Shown here: positions 2,421 to 24,636 of the stretch, one piece after another
How positions within the stretch are numbered: position 1 is the first letter of the stretch
How the letters are laid out: each line of letters starts with the position of its first letter
Assembly (NCBI RefSeq): GCF_024502345.1
Contig: NZ_JALDNN010000003.1
DNA: 64,000 nucleotides
Reading direction: 5' to 3' (one strand)
DNA from: Escherichia coli
Lineage (GTDB): Bacteria; Pseudomonadota; Gammaproteobacteria; Enterobacterales; Enterobacteriaceae
Made by a program: the position numbers and the translations under genes
Notes under the pieces: generated by a model
Seen by the model: only the letters and a program-made list of their open reading frames with translations
What the model was told of the DNA's origin: nothing
Databases searched by the model: none

Positions 2421-2604
2421 GTGGCAGTTCGTGGATGCCGTTTCCCGGGTGCACGCGATCCGAGACCACGCGATCAAGCAGGAAAACAAGCACCTGGGCT
2501 TGCCTGACTGACCGCAGGCCGGCGACGACAAGGTGGAAAAGTTCGGCGTGTGGCTCTGGCGGCAACGATCCCGCGAAGGGCGGACGGTGCTTGAGCTGTT
2601 GAAC

Positions 2605-3007
2605 GTAAGCGTGCGGGCAGACCGTCTTGCGCGACTATGCCGGATGCCACCTATGCGGCAGCAGCTCTGCAATCTCACTCGCCCGCTGCGTCGGCAACCG
2701 TGTCAGCACATCCTTGAGATAGGCATACGGATCGTGCCCATTATTACGGGCCGACTGGATCAAACTCATGATCGCAGCAGCGCACTTGAGCATGCGATCC
2801 CGCGCCGAGCATTTGAGAAGGCAACGGGATGAACGCTGGCTGGATAGCCGTGGTTTTCTGGGTATGCAGCCGAATCCATTTGTGGACGAGGTTGGCATTG
2901 AGGCTGTAGCCCAAGGCGATGTTTGCGATGGAGGCACCGGGTTCAGAACACTCCTGAATGACCTGGGCCTTGAAAGATTTGCTGTAGGTACGGCGCTGAG
3001 GGGGCAT
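2605..3007 (-). mobile_element. Internally deleted IS66-family remnant (orfA-like N-terminus plus TnpC C-terminal tail and one terminal repeat)
   Basis: Minus-strand translations: ...RRTYSKSFKAQVIQECSEPGASIANIALGYSLNANLVHKWIR (orfA-like, 2744-3007) and ...SARNNGHDPYAYLKDVLTRLPTQRASEIAELLPHRW (matches C-terminus of the intact IS66-family TnpC at 39863-41455); GTAAGCGTG at 2605 lies 30 bp past the TnpC-tail stop, the same spacing as in the intact copy. Confidence 0.5.
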
Positions 3008-3447
3008 GGAAAATCCGCTTGATGGGCCATGGCCTTCGGCGGCGGTGTCGGGAAGGTGTGTTGGCAGGACGGATACTGTTGAACTACGTTGTCTGGGGCA
3101 ACGGAGGTTTTTCGGCCCGACTCTGGAACGCGATCCGCAGCGACGACTGGGCAATTCCGCACATTGGCCTGAGCAGCCTCGGGGAAATCGTCGGCTGGGC
3201 GCGCCCAGACGAGTTTCCGCCAAGGAACATGCGCACGAGCAAGGGGCTGCGGGCGCTCGGTTACAACGTGAGGATCGGTGTTTGATCTGCGGCCGTGGGC
3301 GGCGCCCGCAAGGTCCCGATCAACCCACCGTCCCCTGCGCCGGACCGGCCCGCCCTGGCATACCGTCCTTGAAGATTTGAGTCACATCAATCGGCCAGCA
3401 GATCGCTGGATGTTGACTCTTGACTTTTGGCATATTAGGCGCAATAT

Positions 3448-3465
3448 CTTGCAAAGTCTTGCAAG
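3448..3465. promoter_or_regulatory. Tandem palindromic TTGCAA hexamers upstream of the HTH regulator gene (candidate operator)
   Basis: cTTGCAAagtcTTGCAAg about 50 bp upstream of the regulator start; TTGACT -35-like hexamers at 3410-3424. Confidence 0.25.
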
Positions 3466-3512
3466 AACTTCCTCAGGCGAGGCCGCGTGACGACGGAACT
3501 TGTGGGGGTGGT

Positions 3513-3794
3513 ATGACAGCGCGCCAGCAGGCGATCTTCACACTCGACGAGTTGGCTACCTACTTAAAGGTCGGCAAGCGGACGCTCTACCGGCTCGCCG
3601 CGCACGGGGAGATTCCGGCCTTCAAGGTCGGCGGGACGTGGCGGTTTCGTCAAAGTGAAATCGATCGATGGATCAATGATCAGATCCAAGCAGGCAGAAA
3701 GAAGGAGGTGATACGTACAGATGAGCAGCCGAAGTCAGCGAAACATCCCGTGTTGCCTGGGCGCGCTATCCATAGCCGCAGGCAAACGGAGTGA
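3513..3794 (+). CDS. Excisionase/MerR-like helix-turn-helix DNA-binding protein (first gene of the heat-resistance locus)
   Basis: MTARQQAIFTLDELATYLKVGKRTLYRLAAHGEIPAFKVGGTWRFRQSEIDRWI is a typical excisionase-family HTH; GGTGG upstream of the ATG. Confidence 0.75.
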   Translation: MTARQQAIFTLDELATYLKVGKRTLYRLAAHGEIPAFKVGGTWRFRQSEIDRWINDQIQAGRKKEVIRTDEQPKSAKHPVLPGRAIHSRRQTE

Positions 3795-3829
3795 GCGAGA
3801 GTCTTCAATTTTTGTTCTGGAGGTGTGAC

Positions 3830-4399
3830 ATGGACATTGATTTCAAGAAGTTGGCTCCCTGGAACTGGTTCAAGAAGGAGCAGGAAGAACAACAGAGCAC
3901 TGCCTCGCTGCCGGTGCAGCGCAATGACCTGCCGGTAGCGGGTGGGCCCGTCAGTCCCATCCTGCAATTGCACCGCGAGATCGACCGCCTCTTCGACGAC
4001 ACGTTTCGAGGCTTCGGCTTTCCGGCGCTGGCCATGCCACGCTGGCCGTCGGACTGGCCGGGCCTGCTGAAGCCGGCGCTGGACATCCAGGAGACCGACA
4101 AGCAGTACAAGATTTCTTTGGAGGTTCCCGGCGTCGAGGAAAAAGACATCCATATCACGCTCGACAACGACGTGCTGCTGGTTCGCGGTGAAAAGCGTCA
4201 GGAGCAGGAAAGCAAAGACGGCGGTTTCCACCGGGTGGAGCGCTCCTACGGCAGCTTTCAGCGCGCTCTGAACCTGCCGACCGATGCCAACCAGGACACG
4301 ATCAAGGCCGCTTTCAAGAACGGCGTACTCACGATCACAATGGAAAAGCGCGAGGCCAGTGCGCCCAAGCAGGGCCGCTCGATCCCGATCAACGGCTGA
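3830..4399 (+). CDS. hsp20: Small heat-shock protein, Hsp20 family (alpha-crystallin domain)
   Basis: GGAGG RBS 6 nt before ATG; translation has the alpha-crystallin core (DIQETDKQYKISLEVPGVEEKDIHITLDNDVLLVRGEK...GVLTITMEK). Confidence 0.9.
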   Translation: MDIDFKKLAPWNWFKKEQEEQQSTASLPVQRNDLPVAGGPVSPILQLHREIDRLFDDTFRGFGFPALAMPRWPSDWPGLLKPALDIQETDKQYKISLEVPGVEEKDIHITLDNDVLLVRGEKRQEQESKDGGFHRVERSYGSFQRALNLPTDANQDTIKAAFKNGVLTITMEKREASAPKQGRSIPING

Positions 4400-4440
4400 C
4401 GCCGATCGGCTTGTTCTCTACAGAAAAACCAAGTGAATGG

Positions 4441-4467
4441 CGAGGCGCCGTGACCTTCGGCGCCTCG
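4441..4467 (+). other. Perfect 10-bp stem-loop between hsp20 and clpK (possible attenuator or processing site)
   Basis: CGAGGCGCCG-tgacctt-CGGCGCCTCG, 30 bp upstream of the clpK RBS. Confidence 0.4.
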
Positions 4468-4496
4468 TCAAATCAGTCCTCTCAAGGAGCATGAGC

Positions 4497-7346
4497 ATGG
4501 CCAGAAAACAATGCCAGGTCTGCGGCCAGCCCGCCACGGTGCGGGTGGAAGCCAATCTCAATGGTCGCCACAGCACCATGCTGTTGTGTGACGATCACTA
4601 TCGCCAACTGGCGCGCCAGCAAAAGCGCACCGTCTCGCCGCTGGAAGCCTTGTTTGGCTCGCGCAGCGGCTTGTTCGAAGACTTCCTCGGCAGCGACTTC
4701 TTCCGCATCGGTGACGATTCGCCGTCCATGGCGGCCGATACCGACGAGGTGGTCGATGCCTCGTTCGGCGAACCCGCCCCGGCCGGTACGGGCACTGCGC
4801 GCCGTCGCGGCAGTGGGCTCGCCAGCCGTATCAGCGAACAGTCCGAGGCCCTATTGCAGGAGGCCGCCCGACACGCTGCAGAGTTCGGGCGCGCCGAAGT
4901 CGATACCGAACACCTGCTGCTGGCGCTATCCGACAGCGACGTGGTGAAGACCATCCTGGGACAGTTCAAGATCAAGGTCGATGACCTCAAGCGACAGATC
5001 GAATCCGAAGCCAAGCGCGGCGAGAAGCCGTTCGAGGGCGAAGTCGGCGTGTCGCCCCGGGTCAAGGACGCGCTCAGCCGCGCTTTCGTGGCCTCCAACG
5101 AACTCGGCCACTCTTATGTCGGGCCGGAGCATTTCCTGATCGGGCTCGCTGAGGAAGGCGAAGGTTTGGCGGCCAACCTGCTGCGCCGTTACGGCCTCAC
5201 GCCGCAAGCGCTGCGCCAGCAGGTAAGCAAGGTGGTCGGCAAAGGGGCCGAGGATGGCCGCGCCGAGACGCCGACCAACACGCCCGAGCTGGATAAATAC
5301 TCGCGCGACCTCACCAAGATGGCGCGCGAGGGCAAACTCGATCCAGTCATCGGCCGTGCGCAGGAGATCGAGACCACCATCGAGGTGCTGGCCCGGCGCA
5401 AGAAAAACAACCCGGTGTTGATCGGTGAGCCCGGCGTCGGCAAGACCGCCATTGTCGAAGGGCTGGCGCAGCGCATGGTCGCCGGTGAAGTGCCCGAGAC
5501 GCTGCGCGACAAGCGTCTGGTCGAGCTCAACATCAACGCCATGGTGGCAGGCGCCAAGTATCGCGGCGAGTTCGAGGAGCGCGTGCAGAAGGTGCTCAAG
5601 GAAGTGACCGAGCACCAGGGCGAGATGATTCTCTTCATCGATGAAGTGCACACCATCGTCGGTGCAGGCCAGGGTGGCGGCGAAGGCGGGCTGGACGTGG
5701 CCAACGTGTTCAAGCCGATGATGGCGCGCGGCGAACTGAACCTGATCGGCGCCACCACGCTCAACGAGTATCAGAAGTACATCGAGAAGGACGCCGCGCT
5801 GGAGCGTCGTTTCCAGCCGGTGATGGTGCCCGAGCCGACGGTAGCGCAGACCATGATGATCCTGCGCGGCCTGCGCGACACCTTCGAGGCGCACCACAAG
5901 GTCAGCATCACCGAGGATGCGATCATCGCCGCCGCCGAGTTGTCGGACCGCTACATCACCGCGCGCTTTTTGCCTGACAAGGCCATCGACCTGCTTGACC
6001 AGGCGGCCGCACGCGTGAAGCTGTCGGCCACGGCTCGCCCGGTGGCGGTGCAGGAGCTGGAGTCCGAACTGCACCAGTTGCGGCGTGAGCAGGACTACAT
6101 GGCCTCGCGCAAGCAGTACGACAAGGCCGCCGAGCTGGGCAAGCGCATCGAGGCCAAGGAGACTGAACTCAAGCAGCTCGTCGAGGAATGGGAACGCGAG
6201 CGCGCCTCGGGCAGCGCCGAAGTCAAGGCCGAGCATGTCGCGCAGATCGTCTCGCGCCTGACCGGCATTCCGGTCAACGAGCTGACGGTGGAAGAACGCG
6301 AGAAGCTGCTGCATCTGGAGCAGCGGCTGCATGAGCGCCTGGTGGGCCAGGACGAAGCGGTGCGCGCGGTGGCCGATGCCGTGCGGTTGTCGCGCGCGGG
6401 CCTGCGCGAAGGCGACAAGCCGGTGGCGACTTTCCTGTTCCTTGGGCCGACCGGCGTGGGCAAGACCGAGCTCGCCAAGGCGCTGGCCGAGTCCATCTAT
6501 GGCGATGAAGGTGCGCTGCTGCGCATCGACATGTCCGAGTACGGGGAACGCCATGCCGTGGCACGCCTGGTGGGCGCGCCTCCGGGTTATGTGGGCTATG
6601 ACGAGGGCGGCCAGCTCACCGAGAAGGTGCGTCGCAAGCCCTACAGCGTGTTGCTGCTCGATGAGATCGAAAAAGCGCACCCCGACGTCTACAACATCCT
6701 GCTGCAGGTGTTCGACGACGGGCGGCTCACCGACGGCAAGGGCCGGGTGGTGGATTTCACCAATACCATCATCATCGCCACCTCGAACCTGGGCTCGGAC
6801 ATCATCCAGCGTCGGCTGAAGGCCGGTGGCGCCGCCGGCGAGGAATACGAGAAGACCAAGTCCGAGGTGATGGACGTGCTGCGCGGACACTTCCGCCCCG
6901 AGTTCATCAACCGCATCGACGAGATCATCGTCTTCCATGCGCTGGGCAAGGAGGAAATCCGCCATATCGTCGGCCTGCAGCTTGATCGTGTGGCCCGCAA
7001 CGCCGCCAGCCAGGGCGTGACGCTGACCTTCGATCAGACCTTGATCGACCACTTCGCGGAGGAAGGCTACAAGCCCGAGTTCGGCGCGCGTGAGCTCAAG
7101 CGGCTGATCCGCAGCGAGCTGGAAACCGCGCTGGCGCGCGAGATGCTGGGTGGCGGTATCGGCAAGGGTGATCACGCCAACGCCCGCTGGGACGACAAGG
7201 CCGAACGGGTGGTCTTCGAGCGCCAGGAGCCACCCGCGAAGTCGGCTGAGCCTGAAAAGCCCGATGCCGCGGACGTGGCCGAGGCACCGCCTGGCGACGC
7301 GAGCAAGCCTGCGCGCAAGAAGAAGTCAGCGGATGGCGAATCTTGA
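4497..7346 (+). CDS. clpK: ClpK/ClpG-type Clp ATPase disaggregase with N-terminal zinc-finger extension
   Basis: AAGGAG RBS; N-terminus [38 protein letters not shown] (Cys4 motif) followed by two AAA+ modules ([13 protein letters not shown]...; [19 protein letters not shown]...) as in ClpB/ClpK. Confidence 0.9.
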
Positions 7347-8793
7347 GCGATGGGAGGCTGTCGTGTCCGACCCCAATGGGCTGACATGGGCAGCCACCCT
7401 CGTGTCGCTGGCGGTCGCTATCCCCACAGCGGGGCATGCGGTCATCTACAAGCGTGACCCTCGATCGGCCACGCTGTGGGTACTGCTGATCGCCTTGCTG
7501 CCGCTGGGCGGTTCGCTGCTGTATGGGCTGTTCGGCATCAACCGTTACCAGCGGCGGGCGCGGCGGCTCTTCCCGGGGGCAGATCCTGCTGTTCGGCAGG
7601 ATCTCTCGCCCACGATACCCGAGGCTGTATCGCCGCCACTTGCCGGTCTGGCCCACCTGGTGGGACGCGCCACCGGCCAGTCGCTGACCGGCGGCAACCG
7701 CATCGAGCCGCTTGTCGATGGCGAGCAGGCCTACCCGGCCATGCTCGCCGCCATCGAATCGGCGCGGTACAGCGTCGCCTTGACCTCGTACATCTTCGAC
7801 AGCCAAGGTATCGGGGCGCAGTTCGTCGATGCGCTGCGCCGGGCTCATGAGCGCGGCGTGCAAGTGCGGGTGCTGATCGACGACGTGTATGCCCGCTGGA
7901 CGCCCCGCAGCGCCTACCGCGCCTTGCAGCGCGCCGGCGTTCCGGCGGCGACGTTCAACCCTACATTGATTCCCGCGCGCCTGCATGCCGCGCATCTGCG
8001 CAATCACCGCAAGCTGCTGGTGATCGATGGCGAGACGGGTTTCACCGGCGGATTGAACATCTTCAGCCCGTACTGGCGGCCCGATGCGCCGGACCAGGCC
8101 TGTCACGATTTGCACTTTCGTCTGCGCGGGCCGGTGATTGCGCATCTGATGCGGTGCTTCACCGATGATTGGTGCGATACCACGGGCGAGCGGCTCAGCA
8201 AGGGTTACTGGGGCGAACCGCCCGTAACGGCTGATGAGCAAGGAACCTCTTGGGCGCGCGGCATCGAGGCCGGTCCCGATGAGGCCCTGGACCGGATGCG
8301 CTGGACCTTCATGGGCGCTTTGAGCGCCGCGAAGCATTCGGTGCGCATCTGGACACCTTACTTCGTCCCCGATCAGCCGATGATCGCGGCGCTAAGCACG
8401 GCCGCGTTGCGCGGCGTGCGTATCGACGTGCTGACGCCCGCAAACGGCGACCATCCCACGGTGCAATGGGCCGCGCGCGCCCACTACTGGCAGGTGCTGG
8501 AGCACGGTGTGCGCATCTTCGAACGGCCTGGCCCGTTCGACCACAGCAAGCTGATGCTGGTAGACGGAGCGTGGTGCTGCCTGGGTTCGGCCAATTGGGA
8601 TGCACGCAGTTTGCGCCTCAACTTCGAGTTCAATGTGGAGGTGTACGACACCGCGTTGTCTACGCGGCTGTCATCCCTTTTTGATGCCGCTCGTGATGCG
8701 TCGGGCGAGATATCGGCGAAGGCGTTGCGCGCCCGCCCGCTGGCCATCCGCTTGCGCGACGGGGTGGCCCGTCTGTTCACCCCCATTCTCTAG
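7333..8793 (+). CDS. cls: Cardiolipin synthase / phospholipase-D family protein (two HKD motifs)
   Basis: ATG overlaps the clpK stop; HKD motifs HLRNHRKLLVIDGETGFTGGLN and FDHSKLMLVDGAWCCLGSANWD; N-terminal hydrophobic segment. Confidence 0.8.
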   Translation: MANLERWEAVVSDPNGLTWAATLVSLAVAIPTAGHAVIYKRDPRSATLWVLLIALLPLGGSLLYGLFGINRYQRRARRLFPGADPAVRQDLSPTIPEAVSPPLAGLAHLVGRATGQSLTGGNRIEPLVDGEQAYPAMLAAIESARYSVALTSYIFDSQGIGAQFVDALRRAHERGVQVRVLIDDVYARWTPRSAYRALQRAGVPAATFNPTLIPARLHAAHLRNHRKLLVIDGETGFTGGLNIFSPYWRPDAPDQACHDLHFRLRGPVIAHLMRCFTDDWCDTTGERLSKGYWGEPPVTADEQGTSWARGIEAGPDEALDRMRWTFMGALSAAKHSVRIWTPYFVPDQPMIAALSTAALRGVRIDVLTPANGDHPTVQWAARAHYWQVLEHGVRIFERPGPFDHSKLMLVDGAWCCLGSANWDARSLRLNFEFNVEVYDTALSTRLSSLFDAARDASGEISAKALRARPLAIRLRDGVARLFTPIL

Positions 8794-8820
8794 CGACACG
8801 ACTTGCGAGGAACATTGCCC

Positions 8821-10650
8821 ATGGAAAAGAAAGATCAATGGAACATAGGCTACTGGATCGTCGCCGGCCTGTTGCTGCTGACGCTGCAGAACTACTGGCA
8901 GGCGGCCAAGACCGTCGAGCCCGTGCCCTACAGCGAATTCGAGAAGGCGCTGGCCGAGGGGCGCGTCGCCGAAGTGCTGGTGTCGGACCGCACGGTCACC
9001 GGGCACCTGAAATCGCCGGACAGCCGGGGCAAGACCACCATCGTGGCCACCCGTGTCGAACCCGACCTGGCCGAGCGGCTGTCCAAGTACGACGTGCCCT
9101 ATGCGCGGGTGGTGGAAAGCACCTGGCTGCGTGATGTGCTCTCCTGGATTCTGCCGGCGGTGGCCTTCTTCGGCGTCTGGTTCTTCCTGTTCCGCCGCTT
9201 CGCCGAGAAGCAGGGCATGGGTGGCTTCCTGAGCATCGGCAAGAGCCGTGCCAAGGTATTCATGGAGAAGAACACTGGCGTGACCTTTGCCGATGTCGCT
9301 GGCGTCGATGAAGCCAAGGCGGAGTTGGTTGAGATCGTCGATTTCCTCAAGAATCCGCAGGAGTATGGACGGCTCGGGGCGCGCATTCCCAAGGGCGTGT
9401 TGCTGGTCGGCCCACCGGGCACCGGCAAGACATTGCTGGCCAAGGCTGTTGCCGGCGAGGCGGCGGTGCCCTTCTTCTCCATCTCCGGATCAGAGTTTGT
9501 CGAGATGTTCGTCGGCGTGGGTGCAGCGCGCGTGCGCGACCTGTTCGAGCAGGCCCGCGGGCAGGCGCCGGCCATCATCTTCATCGACGAGCTCGATGCG
9601 CTGGGCCGCGCGCGCGGCGTCGGCGGCCCCATCGGCGGCCACGACGAGCGCGAGCAGACCCTCAACCAGCTGCTCACGGAGATGGACGGCTTCGACAGCT
9701 CGGTCGGGCTGATCATCCTCGCCGCCACCAACCGCCCCGAAATCCTCGACCAGGCGCTGCTGCGCGCCGGTCGCTTCGACCGTCAGGTGCTGGTGGACCG
9801 GCCCGACAAGAAGGGACGGCTGGACATCCTGAAAGTCCACGTCAAGAAGGTGACGCTGGCTCAGGATATCGATCTCGAACAGGTGGCTGCGCTGACCACG
9901 GGCTTTTCGGGTGCAGACCTCGCGAACCTGGTCAACGAGGCCGCGCTGGCCGCGACCCGGCGCAAAGCGTCCGCCGTGGAGTTGCAGGATTTCACCGCCG
10001 CCATCGAGCGCATCGTGGCGGGCCTGGAGAAGAAGAACCGCGTGCTCAATCCCAAGGAGCGGGAAACCGTGGCCTATCACGAGATGGGCCATGCGCTGGT
10101 GGCGCTGGCGCTGCCCGGCACCGACCCCGTGCACAAGATCTCGATCATCCCGCGCGGCATCGGCGCGCTGGGCTACACGCTGCAACGCCCCACCGAAGAC
10201 CGCTTCCTGATGACGCGCGCCGATCTGGAACACAAGATCGCCGTGCTGCTGGGCGGTCGTGCGGCCGAGAAGCTCGTGTTCGGCGAGCTGTCCACCGGGG
10301 CTGCCGATGACCTCGCACGGGCCACCGACATTGCCCGCGACATGATCACCCGCTTTGGCATGGACGAAGGACTGGGCTACATCGCCTTCGAGGCGCAGCG
10401 GCCACGCTTTCTCGATACACCGGAACTGGCCCACGGCGGCTGCCGGGTGGCCGAATCGACCCAGGCGCGCATCGATCAGGCCATCCGCGACATCGTGATG
10501 GGCGTGTTCGAGCGCGCCTACCGGATCCTCGACACCAACCGCGCGGTGCTGGAGCGTTGTGCGCGCGAACTGCTGGCGCGGGAAACGCTCGACGAGAACG
10601 ACATCCTTCAATTGACCCAAGGACTTGTTCTAGATAGAAACGAAAAGTAG
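8821..10650 (+). CDS. ftsH: FtsH-family ATP-dependent zinc metalloprotease
   Basis: N-terminal TM helices, AAA module ([26 protein letters not shown]), zinc site HEMGHALVA. Confidence 0.9.
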
Positions 10651-10728
10651 TAGGCGCTATTCAGAGTGAGCCGGCGGCTCTGTTCGGTGCGTCATCCAAT
10701 TCGCCGGCATTGTTCAAGGAGAACCGAT

Positions 10729-12117: not shown

Positions 12118-12219
12118 GGTGATGAAGGGGCCGACTGCTCCATCGGTCAGTCTCGCGATATTCGCAGTCGGCCCCAATAGATTCCCCTATTTTCACTATC
12201 TCATACGAGGCATATCACC

Positions 12220-13107: not shown

Positions 13108-13115
13108 AACCGCTG

Positions 13116-13142
13116 GAGAGGGGGCGCATAGTGCCCCCTCTC
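13116..13142 (+). terminator. Stem-loop downstream of yfdX copy 2 (candidate terminator)
   Basis: GAGAGGGGGC-gcatagt-GCCCCCTCTC perfect 10-bp stem; T-rich tract follows only after about 20 nt. Confidence 0.45.
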
Positions 13143-13196
13143 TTGTCCCATGAGTGTTTGATTTTTTATTTTGTATAGATCTTTAGGAGATATTGC

Positions 13197-15568: not shown

Positions 15569-16388
15569 GGCACTGTTGCAAATAGTCGGTGGTGATAAAC
15601 TTATCATCCCCTTTTGCTGATGGAGCTGCACATGAACCCATTCAAAGGCCGGCATTTTCAGCGTGACATCATTCTGTGGGCCGTACGCTGGTACTGCAAA
15701 TACGGCATCAGTTACCGTGAGCTGCAGGAGATGCTGGCTGAACGCGGAGTGAATGTCGATCACTCCACGATTTACCGCTGGGTTCAGCGTTATGCGCCTG
15801 AAATGGAAAAACGGCTGCGCTGGTACTGGCGTAACCCTTCCGATCTTTGCCCGTGGCACATGGATGAAACCTACGTGAAGGTCAATGGCCGCTGGGCGTA
15901 TCTGTACCGGGCCGTCGACAGCCGGGGCCGCACTGTCGATTTTTATCTCTCCTCCCGTCGTAACAGCAAAGCTGCATACCGGTTTCTGGGTAAAATCCTC
16001 AACAACGTGAAGAAGTGGCAGATCCCGCGATTCATCAACACGGATAAAGCGCCCGCCTATGGTCGCGCGCTTGCTCTGCTCAAACGCGAAGGCCGGTGCC
16101 CGTCTGACGTTGAACACCGACAGATTAAGTACCGGAACAACGTGATTGAATGCGATCATGGCAAACTGAAACGGATAATCGGCGCCACGCTGGGATTTAA
16201 ATCCATGAAGACGGCTTACGCCACCATCAAAGGTATTGAGGTGATGCGTGCACTACGCAAAGGCCAGGCCTCAGCATTTTATTATGGTGATCCCCTGGGC
16301 GAAATGCGCCTGGTAAGCAGAGTTTTTGAAATGTAAGGCCTTTGAATAAGACAAAAGGCTGCCTCATCGCTAACTTTGCAACAGTGCC
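15569..16388 (+). mobile_element. IS26 (IS6 family), copy 1, intact 820 bp
   Basis: 14-bp terminal inverted repeats GGCACTGTTGCAAA at 15569 and TTTGCAACAGTGCC ending 16388; canonical tnpA inside; flanking 8 bp differ (no direct target duplication). Confidence 0.95.
15632..16336 (+). CDS. tnpA: IS26 transposase Tnp26
   Basis: MNPFKGRHFQRDIILWAVRWYCKYGISYRELQEMLAERGVNVDHSTIYRWVQRYAPEME..., 234 aa. Confidence 0.95.
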   Translation: MNPFKGRHFQRDIILWAVRWYCKYGISYRELQEMLAERGVNVDHSTIYRWVQRYAPEMEKRLRWYWRNPSDLCPWHMDETYVKVNGRWAYLYRAVDSRGRTVDFYLSSRRNSKAAYRFLGKILNNVKKWQIPRFINTDKAPAYGRALALLKREGRCPSDVEHRQIKYRNNVIECDHGKLKRIIGATLGFKSMKTAYATIKGIEVMRALRKGQASAFYYGDPLGEMRLVSRVFEM

Positions 16389-16709: not shown

Positions 16710-16819
16710 GAACCTTTTGTGGATTGAGATTTTTAATGTCAGCGAAGCTCTTCGTCAAAAGTGAAACTCTGATAACCTGGTTCTACTGACGAACAGAAGG
16801 ATAAGCAGGAGATCGCTTT

Positions 16820-17380
16820 ATGATTATTGGGTATGCACGAGTATCAAGTAACCATCAGGACACCGAGCTTCAGATGCAGGCGCTCAGAGCTGCTGGCTGT
16901 AAGTTAATTTTTGAGGAAAAGGCTTCTGGCCGTAAGACGAACCGACCAATTTTGAAGAAAGTGGTTGAGATGCTTGAACCCGGTGACGAGCTGGTCATCT
17001 GGAAGCTGGATCGTATCGGTCGCAATGTGCTGCACGCATTATTGACGTTTCAGAGCCTCGCAGAACGCAATGTTAACATCCGTTCTATTACTGATGGCGT
17101 TGACCTGAGTACCGCCAGTGGGCGCTATAACTTCCGTAATATTCTCTCTGCGGCACAATATGAGTCTGATCTGAATAGTGAACGCACTTTGGCGGGGTTA
17201 GCGGTTGCCCGCGCTAAGGGGAGGATTGGCGGACGTAAGCCTAAGTTCACTAATGAGCACTGGGATGCGTTTGAACGGGAAATTAAGTCCGGCTGCTCAC
17301 ATCGTGATATAGCTCTCAAATATGGAGTCGGCCTGTCGACTCTCTACAAACGTTATCCGGCTCAGCAAGAGCATCAGTAA
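16820..17380 (+). CDS. Serine recombinase, DNA-invertase type (Hin/Gin/Pin/Cin-like)
   Basis: MIIGYARVSSNHQDTELQ... with catalytic Ser near the N-terminus and C-terminal HTH (GVGLSTLYKRYPA); position after a tfa fragment matches phage invertible-segment layout. Confidence 0.85.
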   Translation: MIIGYARVSSNHQDTELQMQALRAAGCKLIFEEKASGRKTNRPILKKVVEMLEPGDELVIWKLDRIGRNVLHALLTFQSLAERNVNIRSITDGVDLSTASGRYNFRNILSAAQYESDLNSERTLAGLAVARAKGRIGGRKPKFTNEHWDAFEREIKSGCSHRDIALKYGVGLSTLYKRYPAQQEHQ

Positions 17381-17622
17381 ACACTCTTTGCGTTCATTTT
17401 TGCACTGTGCAGAATGTGTCTTTTTGGCACCTTCCGACAGTGCAAAATTTATCGCGTTTTTGTGCAAAAAAAATCGCCGCGCTACAAAACGTGTGCTATA
17501 CTTGTGCTCATGCGGTTGGATTTCCTATCCCCCCGACCCGCGCTGCGGCGGGCCGAAAAATCCCAGGGATGGGTTTTTTCGGTGTTTTCCTCGTTGGCAC
17601 ATTCAAGAGTAAGGAGCGTTCC

Positions 17623-18231
17623 ATGAAGCTGTATTACACCCCCGGCGCCTGTTCCATGGCCCCGCACATCGCCCTGCGCGAAGCCGGCCTGAAATTCGAC
17701 CTGGAAAAGGTCGACCTGATGACCAAGAAAACCGAATCGGGCGCCGACTTCACCGCCATCAATCCCAAAGGCTACGTGCCGGCGCTGCAGCTCGACAACG
17801 GCCAGGTGCTGACCGAGGTCGGCGTGGTGCTGCAATACATCGCCGACCAGAAGCCGGGCAGCGGACTGGCCCCGGCCGCCGGCACGCTCGAGCGCTACCG
17901 CCTGATGGAGATGCTGAATTTCATCTCCACCGAGCTGCACAAGAACTTCGGTCCGCTGTTCAACCCGGCGGCCGGCGACGACGCCAAGAAAGCAGCCATC
18001 GAGATGATCGGCAAGCGCCTTGGCTACCTCGACCAGCAGCTGGCCGGCAAGCAGTATCTGCTCGGTGACACCTTCACGGTGGCCGACTGCTACCTCGCCA
18101 CCATGCTCGGCTGGTGCCAGTACGCCAAGCTCGACCTGTCGGCCTGGCCGAACATCGGCGCTTACGCCGGCCGCGTGATGAGCCGCCCGGCGGTGATCGA
18201 GACGATGAAGGCCGAAGGCCTGATGGGCTGA
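17623..18231 (+). CDS. Glutathione S-transferase
   Basis: AAGGAG RBS; MKLYYTPGACSMAPHIALREAGL... typical GST N-terminal thioredoxin-like fold; about 67% GC. Confidence 0.8.
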   Translation: MKLYYTPGACSMAPHIALREAGLKFDLEKVDLMTKKTESGADFTAINPKGYVPALQLDNGQVLTEVGVVLQYIADQKPGSGLAPAAGTLERYRLMEMLNFISTELHKNFGPLFNPAAGDDAKKAAIEMIGKRLGYLDQQLAGKQYLLGDTFTVADCYLATMLGWCQYAKLDLSAWPNIGAYAGRVMSRPAVIETMKAEGLMG

Positions 18232-18314
18232 GGGCCACCTGCCGATGCGGCGCGGGTCACGCCCGCGCCGCACGGCGTCAATCCATACCCCCCATCGATT
18301 CCCCAGGAGCCCCC

Positions 18315-19106
18315 ATGCTCGTCGAACGCATCTGGACCGGTAATTCGTACCGCAACTTCAACTACCTGATCGCCTGCCCCGAGACCGGCGAAGCGCTGGC
18401 GATCGATCCGCTGGACCATGAAAAAACCCTGAACACGGCCAGGGTCAAGGGCTGGCAGATCACGCAGATCCTCAACACGCACGAGCACCACGACCACACC
18501 GGCGGCAACGCGGCCGTGGTGGCGGCCACCGGCGCCAAGGTGATCGCGCACCACAAGGCCGCGGGCAAGATCGAAGGCATGGACCGCGGCGTGAAGGCCG
18601 GGGACGTGATCAAGGTCGGCCGGCACATCGAACTGGAATGCCTGGACACGCCCGGCCACACGATGTGCCACATCTGCCTGCGCTCGCACACCGACGAGCC
18701 GGCGCTGTTCTCCGGCGACACGCTGTTCAACGCGGGCGCGGGCAACGTGCACTACGGCGGCAGCGTGGACGAGCTCTACACCACCTTCGTGCAGCAGCTC
18801 GCGAAGCTGCCGGAGAACACCCGCGTCTACCCGGGGCACGACTACATCGAGAACAACCTGCGCTTCACGCTCGCGCGCGAGCCCGGCAACGCGGCCGCGC
18901 AGGCATTGCTGCCGCGGGTGACCGGGCATGACCCGGCCACTTCGGTGGTCACCACGCTGGCCGAGGAGAAGCGCTTCAACACCTTCTTCCGCCTGGCCAG
19001 CCCCGAGGTGATCGCCAAGCTGCGCGAGAGCTTTCCCGAGCTGCCGGAACAGCCCGACGCGAAGACCGTGTTCACCAAGCTGCGCGAGCTGCGCAACCAG
19101 TGGTGA
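18315..19106 (+). CDS. gloB: Hydroxyacylglutathione hydrolase (glyoxalase II), metallo-beta-lactamase fold
   Basis: AGGAG RBS; metal-binding motif THEHHDHTGGN; C-terminal glyoxalase-II-like region. Confidence 0.75.
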   Translation: MLVERIWTGNSYRNFNYLIACPETGEALAIDPLDHEKTLNTARVKGWQITQILNTHEHHDHTGGNAAVVAATGAKVIAHHKAAGKIEGMDRGVKAGDVIKVGRHIELECLDTPGHTMCHICLRSHTDEPALFSGDTLFNAGAGNVHYGGSVDELYTTFVQQLAKLPENTRVYPGHDYIENNLRFTLAREPGNAAAQALLPRVTGHDPATSVVTTLAEEKRFNTFFRLASPEVIAKLRESFPELPEQPDAKTVFTKLRELRNQW

Positions 19107-19151
19107 GCAGCGGCCGGCGCCGGCCCCTTACTTCAGCGTGAACCGCACGGT

Positions 19152-20165
19152 GTGCACTTCCATGTCTGCGCAGTCGATGGCGTGTTTGAGGAAGTGGCGG
19201 GCGAGGAGGGCGATGCTGCTGATGCAGCTTCTCAAAGCTCACCATCGCGCATCATCTTCCACCCCGCCACCGGCGTGACTGCGGATGCCGTGGGTCAGGT
19301 GCAGGCCAGCTTACGCAAACGCATCCTGCGCGCCTTTGTCGGACGGGGCCTGCTGGAGAGTTTCGAGGCCCAAGAGATGCTGGGCTACAAGCACAGCGGG
19401 TTTTCGGTGGACACCAGCGTGTGCATAGCGGCGCACGACCGCGCCGGGCTGGAGCGGCTGCTGCGCTACTGCGCCCGCCCGCCGTTTGCCATGGAGCGGC
19501 TGCGCAAAGCGGGCAGCGAGCTGGTCTACCGCTGCGCCAAGCAGCACAGCGAGCCCGGCAGCCTGCCTCACAACAAGCGCGGCGTAAAGGCCGATGAGAT
19601 CACCCTCACCCCGCTGGAGCTGATTGAACGTATCGCCAAGCTGGTGCCCCCGCCGCGCACGCACCGCCACCGCTACTTTGGCGTGCTGGCACCGAACTCA
19701 CCCTTGAGGCCTGCCGTCACGGCGCTGGCGCGTGATGCAGCGGTGAAACCGGCGCAGGTGCAAGCCGAGCCAGCCAGCACGGCTGCAGGCGAGGGCGCAC
19801 TTGGGGTAAGAAGCCCACTGCCAACCCAGACCGAGCCCGCCCAGCCGGTGCCACCCAAGCGCCCGGCGCACTATTTGTGGGCGGTGCTGATGGCCCGTAT
19901 CTACGAGGTGTTCCCGCTGCTGTGCCCCATCTGCGGCGGGCAAATGCACATCATCGCCTTCATCACACACAGTGCCGATATCCGCCAAATACTGGAGCAC
20001 ATCGGGGTGGAGACGGAGCCGCCGCACATCACCCCGGCACGCGGGCCGCCACTGTGGGACGAGTGCGACGCGCAAGCCGCAGAGGGCGTGGAGCCAGCCC
20101 CAGACTGGGATGAAGCGACCCAACCGGCCCCGGACTTCGAGGTCGATCAGCGCGTCAGTTGGTAG
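19152..20165 (+). pseudogene. IS91/ISCR-family (HUH, rolling-circle) transposase, N-terminally truncated
   Basis: ORF opens at an HUH-like motif (HFHVCAVDGVF) and contains HRHRYFGVLAPNS and a CPICGG zinc-ribbon-like motif; no N-terminal domain; abuts the gloB stop. Confidence 0.4.
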
Positions 20166-20582
20166 GGTGGCAACAGCGGTTAACAGTGGTTTTGCCAACG
20201 TTGCGAGGCAGCGCTGCGCCTGTCACCGCCAAAAACGGGTCATACCGAAAAATCTCGGGCAACTGGCTTTGAGAAATCAACCCAGCAGTCCCCTGTGTGC
20301 ATGCCTGAGACGCCCCAAACTGTGGGGAGGTGATCGTTTTTGCATGGGGGAGAGGTCTTGATAAAATGCCGGGAGGGCTTGCGGTAAGCGAGATTGAGAG
20401 AAAAACTGAGTTTTGCACTACTAAAAAAGAAATGAGAAAAAATAGCTATTTTTGCGTTTAATTTTGCACTTTTATGAAAGTCTTTAGATCCGTTTTAAAG
20501 ACCGTTTAAGCATTTATCAATGCCAGGCACTATACCGTATAGTAGGTTGGTATGTAAGAAGTTGGCTCTGACACCATCTAGC

Positions 20583-21215
20583 TTAAACGGCCTTCTTGTC
20601 TTCACTTGTTAGGCCAGATTCGGCTGCCTTCTGATCAAGTTCAGATGACCCTTTTTTCATCTGCTCATGTATTCGAAGTAAGCGCTCTTGTTCTGCTTGT
20701 GGTAGTTCTACCAGTACGCTGAGCGTATCGTTATATTTCGAGAGAAGATCTAGTACACCTCTAACCCCCATCCTTGCATAGATATCGATGAGTTTCTTTT
20801 TCTCATCGTGGTCTAATGCTTCAAAAAACATTGCCCATGTTAGAGATAAAAATTTGTCATCCTTAAGTGGCACTGCTGTAAATGCGAAAGGACTTGAGCC
20901 ATCGGTTAAACCATTCTCTATGATTGGTTGAGCCTGTCCATTGCTGCTATGAGCTTCATCCAACATGTAGACGCCATCCTTACCGGTCGCTAGCCACGCA
21001 AGGCTCACGTTTTCTATCTCTGAAATTTTCACCAGGATTTCCACACTCGGAGTGGCTGAACGTGCGAAGTAGTTGTTCAGCGTCGAGTATGGCAGGTCCC
21101 AATCTAGAGAAACTTTCCTGAGACTTCTCCCTTTGAAAAGAGACTTCATCCTATCGCGAATACTTTCTTTTCCTGATTGAGCAAAAGAAACATTCTCTTT
21201 CTTTACTGTATTCAT
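20583..21215 (-). CDS. Mu-like phage repressor (c/Repc family)
   Basis: 210 aa ending ...SEDKKAV (Mu repressor ends ...KKAV); divergent from ner. Confidence 0.65.
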   Translation of the reverse strand: MNTVKKENVSFAQSGKESIRDRMKSLFKGRSLRKVSLDWDLPYSTLNNYFARSATPSVEILVKISEIENVSLAWLATGKDGVYMLDEAHSSNGQAQPIIENGLTDGSSPFAFTAVPLKDDKFLSLTWAMFFEALDHDEKKKLIDIYARMGVRGVLDLLSKYNDTLSVLVELPQAEQERLLRIHEQMKKGSSELDQKAAESGLTSEDKKAV

Positions 21216-24567: not shown

Positions 24568-24584
24568 TCGTGAGGTAATAAAAA

Positions 24585-24612
24585 CCCCTGTCAGGCGTTA
24601 ACCTGACAGGGG
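24585..24612. terminator. Bidirectional rho-independent terminator between convergent genes
   Basis: CCCCTGTCAGG-cgttaa-CCTGACAGGGG flanked by AAAA upstream and TTTTC downstream. Confidence 0.65.
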
Positions 24613-24636
24613 TTTTCTTTAGCGAATCAGTGGCTG

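Follow-up and report, generated by a model that had tools for sequence, protein, structure and literature searches.

A selected RNA hairpin between hsp20 and clpK of the transmissible heat-resistance island as a candidate barrier to mRNA decay

The spacer between hsp20 and clpK in the transmissible heat-resistance island (tLST/LHR) encodes an RNA hairpin on the plus strand, and the pairing of its stem is under selection. In this work, we analyzed this element in a 64-kb stretch of Escherichia coli DNA, referred to hereafter as the window, and compared it with its counterparts in about 96 hsp20-clpK loci, which yielded 52 distinct spacers. We tentatively propose, with a probability of roughly 0.4, that the hairpin would act as a decay barrier or segmental stabiliser that punctuates the transcript after hsp20. 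The proposal draws on the anatomy of the element, on its conservation and on analogy with other operons, and from these we infer 3' ends at the hairpin and an altered hsp20:clpK ratio. An initial annotation of the same DNA had described the hairpin as conserved-looking and had suggested an attenuator, an RNA-processing site or a thermometer-like element setting the sHsp:ClpK ratio; the conservation held, the classical attenuator and the thermometer did not, and a role in setting the ratio would be the best reading of the results.

The tLST/LHR island lets E. coli, Klebsiella, Cronobacter, Pseudomonas and Acinetobacter survive temperatures of at least 60 °C and chlorine, and is of relevance to food safety and hospital hygiene. 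Window positions 3700-4700 are 100% identical to the E. coli plasmid pECO-cbb3 (NZ_CP026206.1), whose record from 53226 on corresponds to the window coordinates. According to the annotation of this plasmid and to Pfam, clpK is followed by cls, ftsH, hsp20-GI, yfdX1, yfdX2 and hdeD, in this order; the features close to the spacer are listed in Table 1. Of 5426 complete E. coli genomes, 147 contained the hsp20-clpK junction, which there falls into two sequence types (at least 99% in 34 records, ~80% in around 100), and it matched 1275 plasmid records, with Klebsiella predominating. The island of E. coli AW1.7, a strain employed in experimental work, carries a 14-bp variant of the hairpin, GACGAGGUGUCGCG-GCU-CGCGAUGCCUCGUC.

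The perfect 10-bp GC-rich hairpin initially annotated at 4441-4467 was confirmed (CGAGGCGCCG-TGACCTT-CGGCGCCTCG, with 4441-4450 pairing with 4458-4467 around a 7-nt loop). It is the core of a 13-bp stem, extended outward by the pairs T4438-A4470, G4439-C4469 and G4440·T4468 (one G·U), and the folding energy of the isolated hairpin is -26.3 kcal/mol. The spacer indeed measures 97 nt from the hsp20 stop codon, but it had been described as ending at the clpK RBS and its true end is the start codon, the SD sequence being at 4484-4489. The stem begins 38 nt past the hsp20 stop, and the SD starts 13 nt past the stem. The folding z-score of the 111-nt region was -3.0, with 1 of 200 dinucleotide shuffles folding equally well, and when the entire window was dinucleotide-shuffled 30 times, one shuffle contained a stem that reached 13 bp or more with -26 kcal/mol or below. 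The hairpin is, jointly with another one, the strongest uninterrupted plus-strand hairpin of the window. The other, at 24581-24616, is a 15-bp perfect palindrome (AAAACCCCTGTCAGG-CGTTAA-CCTGACAGGGGTTTT) with A4 and T4 flanks and the same energy of -26.3 kcal/mol, and it resembles a bidirectional intrinsic terminator.

Table 1. Features of the hsp20-clpK region and hairpins further along the operon, with hairpin arms of the window and of representative spacer variants (window coordinates)
Feature	Position	Strand	Basis or sequence
orf1/dna, HTH regulator, first gene of the operon	3513-3794	+	pECO-cbb3 annotation, Pfam HTH_17
hsp20 (sHsp20 / sHsp20-GI, tLST orf2), upstream cistron	3830-4399	+	pECO-cbb3 annotation; PF00011, E = 1.8e-28
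Weak stem near the hsp20 stop (GCCGATCGGC), then T-rich run (TTGTTCTCT)	4394-4419	+	Terminator pattern scan
hsp20-clpK spacer, 97 nt	4400-4496	+	hsp20 stop codon to clpK start codon
Semi-conserved A-rich single-stranded stretch 5' of the hairpin (GAAAAACCAAG; GAAAAACC)	4423-4433	+	Spacer alignments
Intercistronic RNA hairpin, 13 bp	4438-4470	+	5' arm 4438-4450, loop 4451-4457 TGACCTT, 3' arm 4458-4470
Hairpin-to-SD linker, C/U-rich, U-poor	4471-4483	+	AAATCAGTCCTCTC
clpK SD AAGGAG (4484-4489) and ATG (4497-4499), both beyond the hairpin	4484-4499	+	
clpK (ClpG-GI disaggregase, tLST orf3), downstream cistron	4497-7346	+	pECO-cbb3 annotation; Pfam Clp_N, AAA, AAA_2
GC-rich hairpin without U-tract, ftsH/hsp20-GI junction	10670-10708		
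GC-rich hairpin without U-tract, yfdX1/yfdX2 junction	12127-12175		
GC-rich hairpin without U-tract, yfdX2/hdeD junction	13115-13143		
Hairpin arms, window			GGCGAGGCGCCG...CGGCGCCTCGTC
Hairpin arms, L006			GATGAGGCACCGT...GCGGTGCCTCGTC
Hairpin arms, L024			GACGAGGTGTCGCG...CGCGATGCCTCGTC
Hairpin arms, L029			GACGAGGTGCC...GGCACCTCGTC
Hairpin arms, L036			GAAGGGGTGTGGC...GCTGCACTCTTTC
Hairpin arms, L092			CGATGTGCC...GGCACATCG

The sequences flanking the hairpin differ in their degree of conservation. The AGGAG and the ATG of clpK are invariant or nearly so among 50 spacers, and TCCT at 4477-4480 in the linker could pair weakly with the AGGA of the SD (4 bp, UCCU/AGGA). The A-rich stretch on the 5' side, which most variants possess, might, speculatively, be an endonuclease or Hfq-type site. 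The small stem next to the hsp20 stop (4394-4411), picked out as terminator-like by the pattern scan, was rejected as lacking conserved structure: RNAalifold found no consensus pairs at 4394-4419, and the commonest environmental variant at this site reads CGCG-GGGCAG-CGCG followed by TTTTTCTC. An N-terminal extension of ClpK was rejected as well. The ATG at 4437 lies in frame with clpK and opens a mechanical 969-aa ORF through the hairpin, which makes it an annotation trap; in other variants this ATG is missing or lies in another frame, and the length differences between spacers are not multiples of three, so that neither the presence nor the frame of the ORF is conserved and the hairpin is non-coding.

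The junctions came from three sources: plasmid records, one genome per species searched by sHsp20 alignment (80 loci), and metagenomes searched with a degenerate ClpK N-terminal pattern, which contributed 59 loci, each preceded by sHsp20. Their hosts span Enterobacteriaceae, Acinetobacter, Pseudomonas, Stutzerimonas and Xanthomonadales, as well as Burkholderiales, Rhodocyclales, Marinobacter and Halomonadaceae. About 46 of the 52 distinct spacers keep a hairpin of -14 to -29 kcal/mol at the equivalent place, with differing sequences (Table 1); the conservation that the initial annotation had supposed, and which could not have been known from one sequence, is thus real. Covariation was assessed on plain MAFFT alignments of 28 or 50 sequences, without structure fitting, for the 13 pairs taken from the window. 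Standard pairs occupied 88.3% of the cells with 28 sequences and 88.2% with 50, compared with 27-57% and 25-57%, respectively, when the 3' partner was slid by 1-3 columns. Two-sided changes were present in 8 of the 13 pairs in the smaller alignment (30 cells changed on both sides) and in 10 of the 13 in the larger one (58 cells), so that the check for conservation in other tLST/LHR loci suggested at the outset was passed strongly. None of 500 shuffles reached the observed covariation score in either alignment; the relatedness of the sequences makes this shuffle control overstate significance, while the slid-partner control and the diversity of pair types are independent of kinship. RNAalifold independently recovered the same helix. 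Wobble intermediates are frequent (one pair is G-C in 23 sequences, A-U in 15 and G·U in 11), and over the stem pairs of the spacer alignment there are 65 G·U cells vs 12 A·C cells. This asymmetry points to an RNA helix on the plus strand, and not to a minus-strand RNA or to a DNA palindrome read by a protein.

The natural variants indicate which parts of the element are free to change. The loop varies in length (3-12 nt) and in sequence, which makes a sequence-specific loop ligand unlikely. The hairpin lies 14-48 nt from the stop codon and 22-53 nt from the ATG across variants. Klebsiella-type spacers (L002:2270-2300, L026, L115 and L120) have one to four tandem copies of a 9-nt sequence, TCAACCTTG, between the hairpin and the SD, and the number of copies shifts the hairpin-to-ATG distance from 26 to 53 nt among spacers that are otherwise nearly identical. 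Such variable spacing argues that the hairpin is a self-contained unit rather than a component tied to one RBS arrangement. In L091, a natural deletion has removed the A-rich portion of the spacer upstream of the hairpin and the hairpin is retained. Conversely, a shared 8-nt deletion removes most of the 5' arm in L021 (3570-3660), L109 and L113, which come from Pseudoxanthomonas sp. J31 and two metagenome contigs, that is, from three independent samples; the existence of this allele shows that the hairpin can be lost and is not indispensable.

More distant relatives extend this picture. In L047 and L048 (sHsp 65% and ClpK 85% identity), the hsp20-clpK spacer carries a canonical terminator, AGCGCCACC...GGTGGCGCT followed by T7 (L047:3616-3646 and L048:3617-3647). 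The hosts are Pseudomonas luteola and Rehaibacterium terrae, and the terminator stands only 40-51 nt before the clpK ATG, so that ClpK in these loci must need read-through or a promoter inside hsp20. In Castellaniella defragrans (L033:3570-3640), a transposase gene takes the place of clpK, and the tLST apical sequence CCGTGACACGCGG persists within a new, longer hairpin followed by TTTTCT, a single case. In L039, a hairpin separates hsp20 from ftsH. Altogether, members of the wider family carry a strong hairpin behind hsp20 irrespective of the gene that comes next.

In the role that we favor, the hairpin would act in cis within the polycistronic dna-hsp20-clpK mRNA (plus strand), directly 3' of hsp20. 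Three findings, namely the hairpin behind hsp20 in the wider family, the further hairpins of the operon, and an abundant sHsp20 made from what is reported as one transcript, point to punctuation 3' of hsp20 as the property that is selected. After an endonucleolytic cut further downstream, 3'-to-5' trimming by PNPase or RNase II would halt at the stem, leaving a translatable dna-hsp20 message that would outlive the clpK segment; some leaky termination at the U-poor hairpin may contribute. The outcome, from one promoter, would be an excess of sHsp20, a stoichiometric holdase, over ClpK, a catalytic hexamer. Operons are known to obtain more of an upstream gene product by means of stable hairpins that shield RNA 3' ends from exonucleases, as exemplified by malEFG and by a genome-wide survey (Dar & Sorek 2018, PMC5927463). 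The hsp20-clpK hairpin displays the testable features of such elements, i.e., a stable stem-loop at the 3' boundary of hsp20 in a reportedly polycistronic operon and a structure conserved in evolution, and it lacks those that define an intrinsic terminator, an RNA thermometer or a REP element. It resembles the stem-loops of differentially decaying operons (the malE-malF REP hairpin, Rhodobacter puf and the operons of Dar & Sorek) in being a stable, conserved, GC-rich stem-loop without a U-tract that stands directly after the cistron needed in larger amount; as in menBCE (PMC5927463), there are several stem-loops within one operon. Unlike the malE-malF REP, it is single-copy and locus-specific; unlike most E. 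coli examples of Dar & Sorek, which lie inside the downstream coding region, it is intergenic. Few cellular proteins are reported to be as abundant as sHsp20 (PMC7010813; PMC7685784). ClpK is likewise reported to be highly expressed (PMC7010813), so that any effect on the ratio may be small; the supplement of the proteomics paper lists no sHsp20 or ClpK values.

Leaky termination would lead to the same physiological outcome as a decay barrier. It seems to us unlikely that the hairpin acts chiefly in this way, as an intrinsic terminator or attenuator that is leaky for want of a proper U-tract and lets fewer transcripts reach clpK; the fraction of polymerases stopping there would perhaps be larger in the native high-GC hosts of the island. 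The GC-rich stem-loop soon after a stop codon, the T-richer tails of a few variants (L034, L103 and L036) and the canonical terminators of L047 and L048 in the homologous spacer all speak for it, as does a d'Aubenton-Carafa-type score that is borderline for some variants (~0 for the window, -21 to +12 for the variants, +32 and +37 for L047 and L048; only the relative values are usable). Unlike these two terminators, with nT of 4.4-5.6, the tLST variants have an nT of ~2.3, and nearly all of them have 1-4 T in the 10 nt past the stem. In the window, the GC-rich stem-loop is present but the U run (at least ~5 of 8) expected directly 3' of the stem is absent, and a terminator pattern scan made no call at the hairpin, whose tail (TCAAATCAGT, TCAAATCAGTCC) has no U-tract; it is for this reason that the classical attenuator or intrinsic terminator reading was abandoned. 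Furthermore, transcription of the island is reported to give a single polycistronic mRNA that starts at a promoter located 63 bp before orf1, and the only terminator predicted by ARNold follows orf16, with none inside the island (Mercer et al., PMC4563881). Besides, ClpK and the distal proteins are abundant (PMC4563881, PMC7010813), whereas four terminating hairpins in series would strongly starve the distal genes. A terminator acting on the minus strand was also rejected: the minus-strand T5 run is 10-17 nt off the stem, and the G·U/A·C asymmetry favors the plus strand.

The remaining explanations concern the clpK side of the hairpin or the DNA itself. The geometry that suits a barrier after hsp20 would be compatible, too, with a processed clpK mRNA protected at its 5' end by the hairpin, on the model of papBA; RNase E would cut in the A-rich stretch and the hairpin, now at the new 5' end, would shield the clpK message, a decidedly unlikely reading. 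The mechanism is established in other operons (PMC5927463); as in papBA, an unstructured, semi-conserved A-rich segment precedes the intercistronic stem, and GA|AUG just ahead of the window stem has the +2 U of the RN|WUU motif. Unlike papBA, however, the variant alignment contains no consistently conserved RNase E-like motif upstream, the A-rich segment is dispensable in L091, where the hairpin is intact without it, and hairpins of this lineage still follow hsp20 in loci devoid of clpK (L033 and L039); moreover, the protein singled out as most abundant is sHsp20, not ClpK (PMC7010813). The RBS follows the stem at a distance of 13 nt, within a linker that is unstructured and rich in pyrimidines, and its predicted SD accessibility is similar at all temperatures, as would suit a translational insulator that keeps upstream sequence off the clpK RBS or flanks a ribosome standby site, making ClpK translation independent of hsp20 translation. 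We consider this improbable: disruption of the 5' arm in silico left SD accessibility unlowered (0.40 vs 0.30), the hairpin-to-SD distance varies two-fold, and the other three hairpins of the operon do not all adjoin an RBS. RNA thermometers are known upstream of sHsp genes (ROSE, ibpAB), and the hsp20-clpK hairpin shares with ROSE and with the ibpA/ibpB 5' UTR thermometers its location in an untranslated region of an sHsp operon, upstream of a heat-protective gene. This context and the possible weak UCCU/AGGA pairing with the SD 3' of the hairpin notwithstanding, the chance that the stem opens on heating to switch on ClpK is close to negligible. Unlike those thermometers, it contains neither SD (4484-4489) nor AUG (4497), both outside a stem that ends at 4470, nor mismatches or weak pairs. 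Folding predictions keep the perfect, GC-rich stem closed from 20 °C to more than 100 °C, far beyond the 30-45 °C range in which a thermometer should melt: at 37 °C it is unpaired with a probability of 0.001 and at 60 °C with one of 0.02, and in silico the hairpin by itself had not melted at 110 °C. The predicted accessibility from SD to AUG changes only from 0.30 at 37 °C to 0.44 at 60 °C, and an Rfam scan of 2500-9000 with E values up to 10 gave no match at the hairpin, ROSE or fourU-type families included. For sHsp20GI and ClpGGI, constitutive production at 20-42 °C, chiefly in stationary phase, has been reported (PMC7685784). The thermometer-like element of the initial annotation can be regarded as effectively refuted. 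It is also highly improbable that the near-perfect inverted repeat acts as a DNA palindrome, for instance an operator for the HTH regulator encoded by orf1, two genes upstream, or for another protein, or that it is a neutral relic of an old terminator. An operator should have strand-equivalent symmetry and conserved half-sites, whereas G·U is here five times commoner than A·C and the half-sites change in concert across lineages; the covariation across 50 variants likewise speaks against a relic. A palindrome search of the 64-kb window, orf1 promoter region included, found no second copy, and the motif occurred in 55 of 146 fetched loci, once per locus and always in the hsp20-clpK spacer. This single copy in the window and in each matching locus also led us to discard a REP/BIME-type dispersed palindrome. 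Finally, a scan of 2500-9000 restricted to sigma-70 promoters found none, giving support neither to a palindrome next to such a promoter nor to an internal clpK promoter.

The hsp20-clpK hairpin has company in the operon, as three further junctions carry GC-rich hairpins without a U-tract (Table 1). In a single comparison, with Acinetobacter baumannii pC9_1, each of the three has changed with its pairing preserved, by C-G to U-A and G-C to A-U replacements and G·U/G-C swaps. It is tempting to speculate that the intercistronic hairpins without U-tracts, at least four in number, form either a co-evolving, host-independent expression programme or a set of leaky terminators whose effect depends on the host, although we regard the two options, taken jointly, as unlikely. 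The programme would cover the holdase, disaggregase, protease and periplasmic chaperones of the mobile tLST, and would provide the right stoichiometry from a single promoter across Burkholderiales, Enterobacteriaceae and Acinetobacter. With leaky terminators, the sHsp20:ClpK ratio and heat resistance would differ between the native high-GC hosts and enterobacterial recipients.

Expression of the tLST has so far been discussed almost solely through promoters. A keyword search of PMC8290217, PMC8746953 and PMC7984374 found no mention of the hsp20-clpK hairpin, nor is it raised in the other tLST, ClpK and ClpG papers examined. A selected hairpin between the genes of a holdase and a disaggregase hints at an overlooked post-transcriptional layer that would fix chaperone stoichiometry, and the three distal hairpins suggest the same layer. 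The biology to be expected, segmental mRNA stability or leaky termination, is conventional, useful to specialists and unsurprising. The hairpin offers a concrete and easily mutated experimental target, for which the L021-type allele is a ready-made loss-of-structure variant.

In the window, Tn7-like tnsD and tnsE genes occupy positions 1-2151, directly upstream of the island, and are followed by small transposase fragments at 2744-3285. At the other end, an IS26 cuts off the tLST 3' of the mechanosensitive-channel gene. Two IS26 copies (15632-16336 and 20217-20921) flank a SIR2-family gene (16739-18130) and a gene for a DUF87 HerA-like ATPase (18127-20205), a pair which we take to resemble an anti-phage system of the SIR2-HerA type carried on a composite transposon.
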